Shown here in pieces: positions 13,296 through 32,000 of a stretch of 32,000 bases of DNA (the stretch's first letter is position 1; every line of letters begins with the position of its first letter). The notes under the pieces were generated by a model, which did not search any database, was not told where the DNA came from, and saw nothing but the letters and a program-made list of their open reading frames with translations. Origin of the DNA: Candidatus Terraquivivens tikiterensis (GTDB lineage Archaea; Thermoproteota; Nitrososphaeria_A; Caldarchaeales; Wolframiiraptoraceae); assembly GCA_003056285.1 (NCBI GenBank), contig NDWU01000013.1, positions 7,826-39,825 on the forward strand, written 5' to 3'. The position numbers and the translations under genes were made by a program.

Positions 13296-14489
13296 TTAAG
13301 TAGAGGTTCGTAATGCTTTATTGCTTTCATTACCTCTACCTAACCCTTCCCTCTCGATCATCTCATCGAGGGCCTTCGGGGCGAACCCATGTCCCCACAT
13401 CCTGAGTATGTTTATGCATGCCACGAAGTGCCTATCCGCTTCGTAACCACAGTGTTTGCATCTAAAGACCTGCCCATTTGTCTTGGACAAACGCCCGCAT
13501 CTTGGGCAGGCCCTGCTTGTGTTCCTTGCCGGAACGTATTGCACTTTGTAGCCCAGCCATGCCATCTTGTACCCAATGAGGCTCTGGACTTTCCTGTACG
13601 GTAGCGACGCGACCTTGCGGTTCTTCCGCTTCGTACGTTTGTTTCTCGTGGCGTTATAGCTCAAGCCTTTAAGATTTTCAAATATGGGAGCAAGCCCTTC
13701 CTGGGATAGCTCTTTAACTATGCTCGTGGTTATCTTGTGGAGAATGTCGTTCACCCTTCTCCTCTCGCGCCTGGAGTACTTCTGCATGAGCCTCTTTGAT
13801 GTTATAGGTTTATGCTTTGAAAGGCTTTGGATCTTCCTGCGCTTCTCAAAGTAATGTACTCTGATTCCGTATAGCTTCTTTAAGTCGACCTTCCGATATT
13901 CTGCTGAGTCTCCTTTTACCTTAAGGAAGTCTATACTCATCAGGTTTACGTCGATGGAAGCATAGCCTATAGGAATCTTATCCTCGACTGCTCTCTTGAA
14001 GGTTACCATCGCCCTGTCCTCTAGTAGAGTTACCTCGCCTAAACTCAGCTCCCCATTCCTCCATGCATCGATGAATCTTTTCTGATATGAGCCTATTATT
14101 AGCGGAACCTCAACGTAACGATGCGGCATCGTCGTAATTACTATCCTATCTCCTTTGAATCGCATGAGCTCCTTCTGGAGCCTCATGGATAGGGCGTTGA
14201 AGGTCGGTGGATTGTTCGGGTCGGCCCTTCTCCTCTTAACAAGCCTTTTCCAGGAGCGGATTACGTTGCAGGCAACCCTAGCGGCCGAGATGCAGTAGTG
14301 GGTTGCGAAGCCGTACTTCTGCTTGAACTCCTCGTATAGGGCCCTCTCAACTTTCATAGGGGAGCTTACGTTGTGGCTTAGAGCATACTTTATGCATTCT
14401 TTCACCATATCGTTGAACGTTTGGAGCAAAGGCCTAACGTCGGAGCTATGCTTGAACGCTACCGCCTTTACGGCCTCCAACCTCCTCAC
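13296..14489 (-). CDS. tnpB: TnpB/OrfB RNA-guided-nuclease-type protein (IS200/IS605-IS607 accessory protein), apparently intact
   Basis: 397 aa. RuvC-I is ASIDVNL, RuvC-II is PIFENLKGL, RuvC-III is YEADRHFVACINI. Zinc finger is CPRCG...CKHCG. Confidence 0.9.
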   Translation of the reverse strand: MRRLEAVKAVAFKHSSDVRPLLQTFNDMVKECIKYALSHNVSSPMKVERALYEEFKQKYGFATHYCISAARVACNVIRSWKRLVKRRRADPNNPPTFNALSMRLQKELMRFKGDRIVITTMPHRYVEVPLIIGSYQKRFIDAWRNGELSLGEVTLLEDRAMVTFKRAVEDKIPIGYASIDVNLMSIDFLKVKGDSAEYRKVDLKKLYGIRVHYFEKRRKIQSLSKHKPITSKRLMQKYSRRERRRVNDILHKITTSIVKELSQEGLAPIFENLKGLSYNATRNKRTKRKNRKVASLPYRKVQSLIGYKMAWLGYKVQYVPARNTSRACPRCGRLSKTNGQVFRCKHCGYEADRHFVACINILRMWGHGFAPKALDEMIEREGLGRGNESNKALRTST

Positions 14490-14652
14490 CTTTCAGGATC
14501 CTTTCGATGTCGCTCCTGTAGTAGCGAAGCTTCCCGCTCGGAAGCCTTACAGCCCTTATCAAGCCCTTCTTGTACCAGCTCCACAGAGTCTTGTTGCTGA
14601 CCCTAAGTAGAGCCCTAGCCTCCTTAGGAGTAATGAGTTCCTCGTAAGCCAT
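14446..14652 (-). CDS. MerR/excisionase-type HTH protein, equivalent to the N-terminal domain of IS607 TnpA without a recombinase domain
   Basis: 68 aa: ITPKEARALLRVSNKTLWSWYKKGLIRAVRLPSGKLRYYRSDIERIL. The 3' end overlaps the tnpB start by 44 nt. No serine-recombinase catalytic motif follows. Confidence 0.7.
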   Translation of the reverse strand: MAYEELITPKEARALLRVSNKTLWSWYKKGLIRAVRLPSGKLRYYRSDIERILKGEEVGGRKGGSVQA

Positions 14653-22174: not shown

Positions 22175-22591
22175 TCATCTTTTATACACTATTACTTCTA
22201 ATCCTCTTATTCTGTTGAAATCTTTAATGTTTCCTGTAGCTACAGCGTAATTATTTTCTCTTGCTATGATTCCTATTAGTAGGTCTCTTACATCTATTAT
22301 TAGTCCTAAGGATGCAAGATACGCCATTTCTTCACCAGCTTTAATTGCTTCTTTAAAAGTTAAAGCCAATACTACTATTGCTGCACTTAACTCTTCCACA
22401 TCTCTAAGTCTTCTTATTTTATAAGCTCCCCATGAAAGTTCAAAAATATTTATAACTGTTGTTCCTACGTCAATCCCAGATTCTACAAAACTTTTTATAA
22501 ACTTTATAGCACTTTCTCTACCTCTAAGGAAATCTATTAAGATATCAGTGTCTAAAATTACTCTTTTGCTGGTAATTTCCATTCTTTCCAA
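22175..22591 (-). CDS. vapC: PIN-domain ribonuclease toxin VapC
   Basis: 138 aa. The N-terminal VILDTDILIDFL carries the acidic residue, with further conserved D/E positions, and it lies downstream of an antitoxin ORF. The start is uncertain (22591 or 22582). Confidence 0.85.
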   Translation of the reverse strand: MERMEITSKRVILDTDILIDFLRGRESAIKFIKSFVESGIDVGTTVINIFELSWGAYKIRRLRDVEELSAAIVVLALTFKEAIKAGEEMAYLASLGLIIDVRDLLIGIIARENNYAVATGNIKDFNRIRGLEVIVYKR

Positions 22592-22785
22592 GCTCTCCTG
22601 ATTTCTTTTAAGAAATCCTCAATTTCTGTATCATTTATGTCATGCCAGATACCAGCTAGATCCATCAAACCACGATGCTTTTTTACAAGCCTAAGTATTA
22701 CATCGGAAAAACTTTCGCCAGGTCTTTTAATTCGCAGAAGAGCCTCATATGCTTCAAGAGAGACGGTAATAGTTTTAACACCCAA
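22558..22785 (-). CDS. vapB: VapB-type antitoxin (small DNA-binding domain of the TITVSxExYExL...ESFSDVI type)
   Basis: 75 aa: MGVKTITVSLEAYEALLRIKRPGESFSDVILRLV. It overlaps the vapC 5' end. Confidence 0.75.
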   Translation of the reverse strand: MGVKTITVSLEAYEALLRIKRPGESFSDVILRLVKKHRGLMDLAGIWHDINDTEIEDFLKEIRRAWKEWKLPAKE

Positions 22786-26540: not shown

Positions 26541-26807
26541 GTAGGGCTGGAGCGGCCCGAGGTCAAGCCTGCTGAGACCGGACCTCCGTAACCCGCCTTC
26601 CGGACGCGGTATACGGAAAGGGCCTCGCCGGGAGAGGCCTGCGCTCCGGGTGGACGGGAACCGAGCCCGGTCGCTGAGGCAGGAAGCCCAATGGCCCTAA
26701 GGCCTTGGGCAGCTCGTGTAGGAGCGGTGCCGGCATGACCGCGGTGGCGATGAAGAGCCAGAGTTACGCGGACCTGTGAAGAGGAGGCATTTGTCGGAGC
26801 CACCTTT
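26541..26807 (+). ncRNA. ffs: GC-rich structured RNA of about 265 nt, most likely SRP (7S) RNA
   Basis: There is no plausible ORF; the 125-aa minus-strand ORF is Ala/Gly/Arg/Pro-rich GC artefact. Nested stems are dense: GGGC-TGGAGCG-GCCC, GGCCTC-GCCGGGA-GAGGCC, GCCCAATGGCC-CTAA-GGCCTTGGGC, GCGGT...ACCGC, and CCGGG-TGGA-CGG-GAA-CCG-AGC-CCCGG (helix-8-like internal loop). The 5' GGGCTGG and CCGTAACC resemble the SRP Alu-domain UGUAAC region, and the 3' CCTGTGAAGAG resembles the helix 5 3' strand. RNase P was not excluded. Confidence 0.5.
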
Positions 26808-26813
26808 GACGAT

Positions 26814-27157
26814 ATGTGAGGGAAATCCCGCGCCCTTTATTGGTGGGATGGGAGCGGGCAAAGTTTATAGCGGTATACGATGAAACAAAGAAAAAGCTTG
26901 AAAAGCTGAAGGTCCACCCAGGAGAACCCTACGACGACGTTGTAAAAAGTCTGATCGAGAAGTGCGGAAATCCCAGCTGAGCTACAAGCTCTACCATAAG
27001 CCTGGGCATGATGGAAGGTTACCCGAAACCTTTAGCCCTGCATGATAGTGATGAGCGGATGGTAGGCCTGATCCGCCTGCTTATATGGAGCCCCTACTGG
27101 TACTAGCAGGCTCCGTCTTTGGACAGGCCCGCTGGCTTATAGCCTTGGGTAGCTCAA
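26814..27157 (+). mobile_element. mini-element A: decayed internal-deletion derivative of a TnpB-type IS (left-end hairpin, promoter, remnant small ORF, remnant tnpB start, conserved 3' end)
   Basis: It is collinear with 30673-31204. The left ends match (ATGTGAGGGAAATCCC...CAAAGTTTATA). The small-ORF remnant ...AVYDETKKKLEKLKVHPGEPYDDVVKSLIEKCGNPS (stop 26978-26980) has no start codon. QLSYKL is a remnant of the TnpB N-terminus. The 3' block 27017-27157 aligns with 31038-31204. Confidence 0.6.
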
Positions 27158-30621: not shown

Positions 30622-30753
30622 CCCTGACAATCCGATGGATACCTACCGAAAAAACTTTAGTAAGTTTTAATAATGTGAGCGGGGAAATCCCACACCATTC
30701 ATGGGTGGAATAAAAGCGAACAAAGTTTATATAAGAACTTATACTCTTTTTAT

Positions 30754-30894
30754 ATGGTTGCTATGGAAGAATATACAACGATTCAAATAAGAAAAGAAAC
30801 GAGGGAAAAGTTGAAGGCTCTTAGAATAACAAAAAGAGAGTCTTATGACGAAATCATAAATAGGTTGATTGAGAAATGCAAAAAGTCCAGCTGA
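30754..30894 (+). CDS. 46-aa small DNA-binding-type ORF (VapB-antitoxin-like N-terminal domain) carried by mini-element B
   Basis: MVAMEEYTTIQIRKETREKLKALRITKRESYDEIINRLIEKCKKSS. It has the same TI.v..E....L......ES..D.I..L pattern as the vapB product at 22558-22785 and the remnant in element A. It overlaps the tnpB-fragment start. Confidence 0.5.
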   Translation: MVAMEEYTTIQIRKETREKLKALRITKRESYDEIINRLIEKCKKSS

Positions 30895-31010
30895 CCTACA
30901 AGTTCAGGCTTTACCCGAAGAAGGAGCAAGAGGAACGGCTACTAGAGACCTTAAAGCTGTGCAGTCAGACCTACAATCACTTTCTAGCACAGTGGAACGG
31001 GAAGGAGAGA
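30876..31010 (+). pseudogene. tnpB: tnpB 5' fragment (N-terminal ~45 codons only)
   Basis: MQKVQLTYKFRLYPKKEQEERLLETLKLCSQTYNHFL is a classic TnpB N-terminus. The rest of the 107-aa track ORF runs through the non-coding 3' block and shows no TnpB features. Confidence 0.6.
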
Positions 31011-31282
31011 ATTCCGAGCGGCACCCCGGAAGGGCTAGGCTACGAAAACCCTTATAGGGACTGGATTTCTGCATGTAGAATAAAGATGAGGGGATGGGGC
31101 AGCCCTGATTCGCCTGCTGAGGTGGAGCCTCTACTGGTAGGGATACCAGCAAGCTCCATCTTTGAAGCAGGAAGCCCGCTGGCTTTCAGCCGTGGGTAGC
31201 TCACCGAGAATCCTTGAGCAAGAAAAGCACGCAGAAAGCATTGGATGCCGTACTGGACCCAGCATCTTTGCGCTAGGCCATA

Positions 31283-32000
31283 TTATTCCATCAGTAAACT
31301 TGTCGTCCAGTAAGGGTTCTGAGCTATGTAATCTTTAATAGACATTACATAGCTCTTGGGACTCATCAGCCTTGGAGCCCTCTTGGGTTCATCGGACCCC
31401 TCATCAGCCTCCTCCCCTGTCAGGGTGAACCCTCTCCAAGCATTTATGAGCTCATCGAAGAGCCTTGGGCTTGGAGAAAGACCCTCCATCTTAAGGTATA
31501 GGTTTATTGCCCCTTTCGGGGCATTAACCATACCACACCTGGAGCACCTTTTGGTTGAATTGTATGGGTTGAGGGTTTTAATGCGAGATTTGTAGCCCAT
31601 CATTACTATCAGTTTCTTCCAATCGCTTTTTGCAATGTTTCTGTTATGTTCCTTGGAATTGTTGAACATTCTTTGCTTTTCAAGACTTTCAAATCCGTGC
31701 ATGTAACCTTTGAACTCTCTGCTTAGAGACGTCGTTACCTTATGCAGAAAATCAATTGCCCTGTTTCTCTCCCTTCTGGAATACTTAGCTAGGATTCTTC
31801 TTAGCGATGGCTTCTTCGAAGCTTTGCTCTGGAGCCTCTTCCTCTTAAGCTCATATGCTCTATGTATGTGGAATAGCTGTGAAAGGTCAACTCTAATCCA
31901 TCCAAGTTTAGGACTGAACCCATCTATGCTCTTCTCATTACTATCCCACGCAATCTTATCATGAATATTCTTTTCTTTATTACTGAACCTGAACGTGATT
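31283..32000 (-). CDS. tnpB: second TnpB-family protein, N-terminus outside the window, C-terminal nuclease/zinc-finger region degenerate
   Basis: The minus frame is open from 32000 down to the stop at 31283; the track shows only the part after the first Met. It reads ...IAWDSNEKSIDG (RuvC-I), ...KYSRRERNRAIDFLHKVTTSL..., MHGFESLEK (RuvC-II) and CSRCG (first zinc knuckle). The second CxxC and the DRDxNAAxNI RuvC-III motif are missing. Confidence 0.7.
   Translation of the reverse strand, partial: ITFRFSNKEKNIHDKIAWDSNEKSIDGFSPKLGWIRVDLSQLFHIHRAYELKRKRLQSKASKKPSLRRILAKYSRRERNRAIDFLHKVTTSLSREFKGYMHGFESLEKQRMFNNSKEHNRNIAKSDWKKLIVMMGYKSRIKTLNPYNSTKRCSRCGMVNAPKGAINLYLKMEGLSPSPRLFDELINAWRGFTLTGEEADEGSDEPKRAPRLMSPKSYVMSIKDYIAQNPYWTTSLLME

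Follow-up and report, generated by a model that had tools for sequence, protein, structure and literature searches.

A probably self-repressing archaeal mini-element of the IS200/IS605 type that keeps an intact RHH gene beside a deleted tnpB

Arc-like RHH proteins are encoded in IS605-family transposons (Zedaveinyte et al., 10.1101/2023.11.20.567912), and ChIP-seq and reporter assays by Moon, Zedaveinyte, Wiegand and Sternberg have shown that Arc binds and represses IS605-family promoters, including those of elements that carry only arc and tnpB (10.64898/2026.09.24.754181). The elements described in this work come from bacteria; in them arc and tnpA often face away from tnpB across a two-way promoter. 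An archaeal clade in which tnpB is paired with an RHH/MazE gene, RIIIr-4, was described as non-mobile, with the RuvC-III Asp exchanged for His, and was read as a toxin-antitoxin system (Altae-Tran et al., 2023, PMC10691335). PATE-like minimal derivatives of IS200/IS605 elements encode omega RNAs that are used in trans, and were described without protein-coding genes (Meers et al., 10.1101/2023.03.14.532601).

Here we analysed a 32,000-nt stretch of DNA (the window; C5:7826-39825) from an archaeal assembly of 1.54 Mb in 39 contigs. An original prediction had proposed that the window contains a mini-element in which a small DNA-binding gene and a tnpB stub lie between a left end and a conserved 3' module. 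We located every one of these parts, the DNA-binding function of the small gene being predicted, within a bounded insert of about 532 nt at 30671-31204. As in the arc-bearing transposons, a small RHH gene lies within the element ends and adjoins tnpB (and tnpA in some relatives), and the promoter of the element itself bears operator-like repeats; forms that have arc and tnpB alone are known as well. In contrast to the bacterial cases, the host is archaeal, the promoter is of the TATA type, the RHH gene is co-directional with tnpB and overlaps it by 19 nt, and tnpB itself has been lost; the likeness rests on fold and layout, not on sequence homology to the published Arc clade. The element resembles RIIIr-4 in its archaeal host, in the small RHH gene that immediately precedes tnpB and in a long 3' stretch for a putative guide RNA, but its lineage is multi-copy and insertion-polymorphic, and its relatives keep the usual RuvC-III and an HTH_OrfB_IS605 N-terminus. 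With the PATE-like derivatives it shares subterminal hairpins at both ends, a predicted guide-RNA scaffold, several copies, the lack of a nuclease or transposase and the need for service in trans; unlike them, it keeps an intact RHH regulator gene and a promoter. The novelty that the original prediction implied did not hold up, as RHH-TnpB pairs (PMC10691335; 10.1101/2023.11.20.567912) and repression (10.64898/2026.09.24.754181) have been published, and the element is a well-documented example of that pairing rather than a new principle. What it adds is a covariation between a candidate operator and the RHH protein, a series of forms running from RHH-tnpA-tnpB through RHH-tnpB and remnant-tnpB to the mini-element, and the recurrence of nuclease-less copies that keep the RHH gene.

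The boundaries, the insertion and the copy structure of the element are directly observed. When at least 12 in-genome copies were aligned, the flanks of a dozen left ends diverged upstream of (T)TTTAA; beyond this motif the left end, with its 7-bp hairpin, is conserved across these copies. In the window, the left end occupies 30671-30725 (+), with the hairpin arms ATCCCAC (30687-30693) and GTGGAAT (30705-30711), and directly 5' of it lies the target or TAM sequence TTTTAA (30665-30670, +), assigned from the divergence of the copy flanks and from the empty sites. For one archaeal TnpB, the TAM has been shown by experiment to be TTTAA (10.1101/2023.03.06.531077). At the other side, an alignment of 23 right ends placed a sharp limit after GGTAGCTCAC (31204 in the window). 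In six same-genus genomes the neighbouring genes are present and the element is absent; TTTTAA also occurs at their empty site. These sites read ...AAGTTTTAA-(26 nt)-TTAA|CGAGAATTCTTG..., and the filled site of the window reads ...AAGTTTTAA-[element]-GTAGCTCAC|CGAGAATCCTTG...; because the two agree, the right junction (RE|CGAGAAT...) is exact. The 26 nt between the two TTAA motifs of the empty sites are missing to the left of the element here, and hence the entry point may have been either the first or the second TTAA. The left-end motif GAA(A/G)TCC..stem..GGATGAA also occurs in relatives from other phyla and in the tnpA-bearing IS605 on C22. In a Micrarchaeota locus, 35 nt (L064:2797-2831) are 91% identical to the left-end hairpin region, a match that suggests that the element family may move between distant archaeal phyla.

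Behind the left end lies an intact gene for a 46-aa RHH protein (30754-30894, +), Arc-like and of the DUF7557 family, which is supported by Pfam, dN/dS, homologues, an AF2 model and structural matches. The match to Pfam DUF7557 has an E-value of 1.5e-11 and exceeds the cut-off. Against VAPB_antitox (PF02697) the protein scored 25.8 bits over profile positions 2-37 of 69; this is just below the Pfam cut-off of 27.9 and does not cover the whole profile. The original prediction had noted that the ORF resembles the product of the vapB gene of the window (22558-22785, minus strand; PF02697, E 2.9e-19), and BLASTP bore this out with 39% identity over 36 aa (E 8e-4). The two proteins share the pattern of the RHH DNA-binding domain; however, the protein studied here lacks the C-terminal half of VapB and a PIN partner. 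The gene adjoining it downstream is tnpB, not that of a PIN-domain toxin. In an AF2 model built with the family alignment (pLDDT 85), an extended N-terminal segment (residues 8-13) precedes two helices (14-22 and 31-45), and nothing extends past helix 2, so that the C-terminal toxin-binding arm is absent. The term antitoxin-like thus applies to the VapB-like fold, and not to a toxin-binding part. In a wide structural alignment nearly all of the top 50 matches were RHH proteins, among them AmrZ, NikR, the N-terminal part of MazE9, PutA, Arc, TacA, ParD, SvtR, ORF56 and omega, with Z-scores of at most 5.5, as expected for a protein of only 46 residues. Searching PDB sequences with the RHH profile gave no significant match, and Foldseek found none in the PDB at E < 0.001 for the model; of these comparisons, the wide structural alignment alone revealed the RHH fold.

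The genome holds two alleles of this gene, one on C5 and one shared by C12 and C31, which differ at 30 of 138 nt with a dN/dS of 0.16-0.17 at a dS of about 1. A protein search returned 38 close homologues with 11 invariant residues, every one of which is kept in both alleles. The nearest homologues are labelled Candidatus Bathyarchaeia, and others are spread across many archaeal groups. The RHH ORF is a real gene under selection. The possibility that it is a fragment of a transposase was ruled out by the Pfam match and by its presence as a free-standing gene in relatives: some complete relatives do encode a Y1 transposase, and the ORF is no piece of it. In two loci, L045:3004-4560 from a Bathyarchaeota MAG and L047:2992-4211 from an 'uncultured archaeon' MAG, an RHH gene whose product is 74-83% identical occurs with no TnpB, about 50 nt upstream of a glycine-cleavage P-protein gene; it could represent either what remains of a left end or a regulator that has been recruited.

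The RHH ORF overlaps the tnpB start codon (ATG at 30876) by 19 nt, as the original prediction had stated. This ATG opens a frame of 107 aa, whose first 41 residues match HTH_OrfB_IS605 (E 1.8e-10). The 5' stub of tnpB comprises 48 codons (30876-31019, +), identified by Pfam and 87.5% identical in amino acids to residues 1-48 of the TnpB on C35. After codon 48, at 31019|31020, the stub is joined in frame to the last 59 codons of the gene, and codons 49 to about 316 are missing from the mini-element. The early loss of tnpB had been correctly foreseen, with the break placed at about codon 45 instead of 48; the in-frame fusion to the 3' end of the gene comes in addition. The remaining part of the insert (31020-31204, +) corresponds in its coding portion to residues 317-379 of the C35 TnpB, has its in-frame stop at 31197-31199, and extends to the right end.

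This 3' block is common to at least 23 in-genome copies with conserved helices, and by its position it would be the omega RNA scaffold. Both the sequence and the minimum-free-energy fold contain the nested hairpin of the original prediction (31124-31157, +), in which CTGGTA-GGGA-TACCAG (31134-31149) is enclosed by GGAGC (31124-31128) and GCTCC (31153-31157); a terminal hairpin follows at 31174-31197 (+). In other copies the variable hairpin of the block is swapped for different hairpin-forming sequences. The fold was only modestly better than those of shuffled sequences (z = -1.57), RNAalifold on 17 within-genome copies revealed almost no compensatory changes, and Rfam had no match for the block, whether the gathering threshold or an E-value threshold was applied. 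The known arrangement of TnpB and omega RNA (10.1101/2023.03.14.532601) leads us to predict that the guide segment would be the flank just 3' of the right end (31205-31224, +). This flank matches the empty-site sequence TTAA|CGAGAATTCTTG of the same-genus genomes.

The genome is rich in TnpB, with about 45 matches to the TNB domain, and has a single Y1 TnpA, on C22. The deletion junction ..GAATTCCGAGC|GGCACC.. is identical in the copies on C5, C12, C31 and C15, and their right flanks differ; a single deletion was therefore followed by transposition. For this lineage we counted four mini-elements, of which three have the RHH gene and one (C15) lacks it, and a single full-length element, which lacks it too (C35). 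An apparent count of five RHH copies was rejected: the ends of contigs C26 and C28 are identical to the starts of C31 and C12, respectively, and represent the left flanks of those copies, leaving three. The C5 and C12 copies are 75% identical in the RHH segment, as against 96% in the stub and 98% in the 3' block, and this mosaic indicates that the promoter-RHH module has been exchanged between copies. On C35 and C15 a shorter stretch stands in place of the RHH gene, and it closes with 25 codons for the C-terminal end of a Y1 transposase; the remnant on C35 is 64% identical (E 8e-10) to the TnpA of a Woesearchaeota MAG (L066). It lies at C35:19612-19752 (L005:412-549) and ends ..SDETIQKYIEEQKGK, its stop codon abutting the tnpB ATG. 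The sole full-length TnpB of the lineage in this genome, a protein of 379 aa (C35:19753-20892), has no zinc ribbon, which most relatives possess, and reads RDWISACRI where relatives read RDYNSAINI, a degenerate RuvC-III motif; it may be inactive. Since this TnpB has neither an RHH gene nor a zinc ribbon nor a normal RuvC-III, a working partner for the omega RNA of the mini-element may be absent. A TnpB from another phylum (L044) also lacks the zinc ribbon and keeps the RuvC-III motif. The C22 TnpA was considered as the mobiliser and set aside as a clear one, because the ends match only in the general left-end motif and not at the nucleotide level.

Scans for RHH loci covered at least 80 loci in species-representative genomes and at least 80 in metagenomes, and they showed that, across many archaea, the gene and this TnpB lineage are tightly linked. 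In 19 of the 27 closest genome loci, a TnpB of the lineage starts at the RHH stop codon, from about 20 nt before to 30 nt after it; these proteins are 31-57% identical to that of C35 and come from Methanomethylicaceae, Aenigmatarchaeota, Nanoarchaeota, Pacearchaeota, Micrarchaeota, Methanohalarchaeum, Methanosarcinales and Thermococci. Pfam TnpB domains were found in the ORFs downstream of the RHH gene in relatives, and in 47 of the 80 metagenome loci listed a TnpB of this kind is present, in most cases at full length. Full-length copies, which the original prediction had proposed as its main check, were found in L128, L135 and L150: in each, the left and right ends enclose a free-standing RHH gene and, behind it, a tnpB that encodes about 375 aa, and the nucleotide identity is 70-77%. 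In L066 the order is RHH, tnpA (Y1_Tnp, E 3.8e-38), tnpB, with the TnpB of this lineage present only as a fragment further downstream. From this order and the remnants on C35 and C15, it follows that the left-end promoter is followed first by the RHH gene and that tnpA, if present, comes between this gene and tnpB; the RHH-tnpB and remnant-tnpB forms are two different deletion products. The proposal that the RHH gene stands where a transposase would be expected is thus right in so far as a tnpA remnant fills that slot on C35 and C15, but L066 has both genes, and the RHH gene of the mini-element is a separate regulator gene. Deletion derivatives that keep the RHH gene with other junctions occur in L132, L134 and L042, and these arose independently. 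More remote DUF7557 relatives are 75-80 aa long and are followed by ORFs of about 83 aa, resembling ordinary toxin-antitoxin pairs. The original prediction had also drawn a parallel to a second unit of the window, in which a 68-aa MerR/HTH_17-type protein (ORF 14446-14652, minus strand) lies in front of another TnpB of 397 aa; a small gene does precede TnpB in both, and the two are alike in layout only.

A TATA box, TTTATATA (30726-30733, +), lies 20 nt upstream of the RHH start codon at 30754, a spacing that would suit a leaderless transcript; the distance is equal in nearly all relatives. Between the TATA box and the start codons, two 11-nt units, ATACTCTTTTT and ATATGGTTGCT (30741-30762, +), form a candidate operator, assigned by position; in a direct-repeat test on the promoter of this copy, the units were weakly alike and no better than shuffles. 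In relatives, two direct repeats fill the space from TATA box to ATG, the second abutting the ATG, with a period of 11 bp in 39 of 43 cases. Their sequence varies with the protein. Loci whose proteins carry RTNIQIE have two TGTGT in 14 of 15 cases and two TATGT in none of the 15, whereas loci with RT(T/S)IQIE have two TATGT in 28 of 29 and two TGTGT in none of the 29; these counts come from related, non-independent loci and are not to be read as a probability. In the subgroup to which the present copies belong (YTTIQIRK, WTTIMVRK), the 11-nt units are ATA...T..(C)T-like and weakly repeated, and they differ between the two alleles together with the strand residue (Gln versus Met). The residue that varies between the RTN and RT(T/S) proteins occupies an alternate position on the beta-strand with which the RHH fold is known to enter the major groove. 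A repeat sequence that tracks one residue of this strand points to an operator/repressor pair, as this is the pattern that such a pair would show.

We consider it likely that the insert is a non-autonomous, PATE/MITE-like deletion copy of an IS200/IS605 element whose RHH protein, by prediction, represses its own left-end promoter. The parent would have had the order left end, promoter, RHH, (tnpA), tnpB, omega RNA, right end. One deletion would have removed tnpB codons 49 to about 316, and the shortened element would then have transposed to at least four sites after TTTAA-type motifs, presumably mobilised by a Y1 TnpA supplied in trans. The RHH protein, as a dimer, is most likely to bind the pair of repeats, phased by 11 bp, that separates the TATA box from its own start codon; in this way it would throttle the single promoter, that of its own, presumably leaderless, gene. 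This promoter would drive the RHH gene, tnpB and the omega RNA in full-length relatives, and the RHH gene, the stub and the omega RNA scaffold with a flank-derived guide in the mini-element. Judged from sequence comparisons, DNA binding and repression by the RHH protein are most likely, and its reading as an Arc-like autorepressor is based on the operator-like pattern together with the match to the results on bacterial IS605-family elements. The omega RNA of the mini-element would by inference be used in trans by a TnpB. If so regulated, the element offers a clean archaeal case for the control of a TnpB transposon by its own small RHH repressor, with ends set by empty sites, and the covariation names a likely operator, making a simple binding or reporter test feasible on an archaeal TATA-type promoter. 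Repressor-making deletion derivatives are known in other transposons, and there is a small chance that full-length relatives are kept in check in trans by the RHH-bearing mini-elements, which would then work as copy-number brakes or 'immunity' modules. Were this true, mini-elements that keep repressor and scaffold without the nuclease could be favoured, and this would explain both the repeated independent derivatives that keep the RHH gene and the survival of the RHH gene of this lineage here only in nuclease-less copies.

Other readings have to be weighed against autorepression. The RHH gene might be a functionless passenger, idle in this genome and intact through youth, the selection having taken place earlier, when the elements were still full length. 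The assembly contains no full-length RHH-tnpB unit of this lineage, the two copies of the second allele differ by only 2 nt in the ORF and are silent on present selection, and truncated or stop-containing RHH relics are held by mini family A (e.g. 26806-27157) and by several other copies. Yet all three RHH-bearing mini-elements keep the frame and every invariant residue, although copies differ elsewhere by up to 12%, and derivatives that keep the gene exist independently elsewhere, with the different junctions of L132, L134 and L042; we regard an idle passenger as unlikely. For a host-recruited regulator, in which the insert would supply promoter and repressor to the neighbouring gene of the acetamidase/formamidase family, we see hardly any room: the element does read towards that gene, whose start is 14 nt past the right end, but a small inversion and another TnpB element (31283-32000) disrupt the gene in this genome, and other copies of the mini-element adjoin unrelated genes.

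A toxin-antitoxin function, as proposed for the archaeal RHH/MazE-TnpB clade (PMC10691335), would have the RHH protein block TnpB by protein contact, and the mini-elements would be orphan antitoxins that protect the host from related TnpB elements. Retention of the RHH gene without TnpB would fit an orphan antitoxin, the RHH domain is VapB-like in score and in identity to the vapB product of the window, the remote DUF7557 relatives have a pair-like arrangement with the ORFs that follow them, and RIIIr-4-like units, with a RuvC-III H-R-D TnpB and a homologous RHH gene, occur in this genome (C1:1-999 and C9:1-1006) and in a same-genus genome (L022). The operator-like repeats do not discriminate between repressor and antitoxin, because antitoxins also autoregulate. 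Against this function, the protein is a bare RHH fold with no toxin-binding arm, the same gene also precedes tnpA in L066, and the elements are mobile and multi-copy, not fixed. The Asp-to-His change of RIIIr-4 is not seen in this lineage: its relatives keep an ordinary RuvC-III, reading ..(A/T/N/P)(D/T/N/P)RDYNSAINIL, C35 reads RDWISACRI, and the H-R-D form is confined to the other ('MERTN') lineage. Nor is the locus fixed as in RIIIr-4, with several copies sharing one junction and six empty same-genus sites. The toxin-antitoxin reading fits less well than autorepression and appears to us quite improbable. For this archaeal RHH-TnpB lineage at least, our results speak for a mobile element that regulates itself and against a toxin-antitoxin pair fixed in place.

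Some further observations concern the surroundings of the element and other TnpB units of the genome. The right-hand neighbour gene, with its start near 31219, is orthologous to a gene of the acetamidase/formamidase family, represented in a same-genus genome by an FmdA_AmdA gene at L122:2532-3854. Relative to same-genus genomes, about 45 nt (about 31261-31303) are inverted between the inverted repeats ACTGGAC and GTCCAGT, after which the gene is interrupted by the TnpB element on the minus strand (31283-32000). Mini-element A (window 26806-27157) represents a second family of mini-elements, in which the deletion junction is a different one. Its RHH relic is without start codon and beta-strand, the reading frame passes through the TATA box, and in several sister copies the relic is interrupted by stop codons. 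Another TnpB lineage, unrelated to that of the element, has an N-terminus reading MERTN.., a Glu-to-Gly change in RuvC-II and H-R-D in RuvC-III. It lies behind a homologous RHH gene on C1 and C9 (both on the minus strand) and at L022:1444-2840, and at C22:96800-99500 (-) it is preceded by the only Y1 tnpA of the genome.
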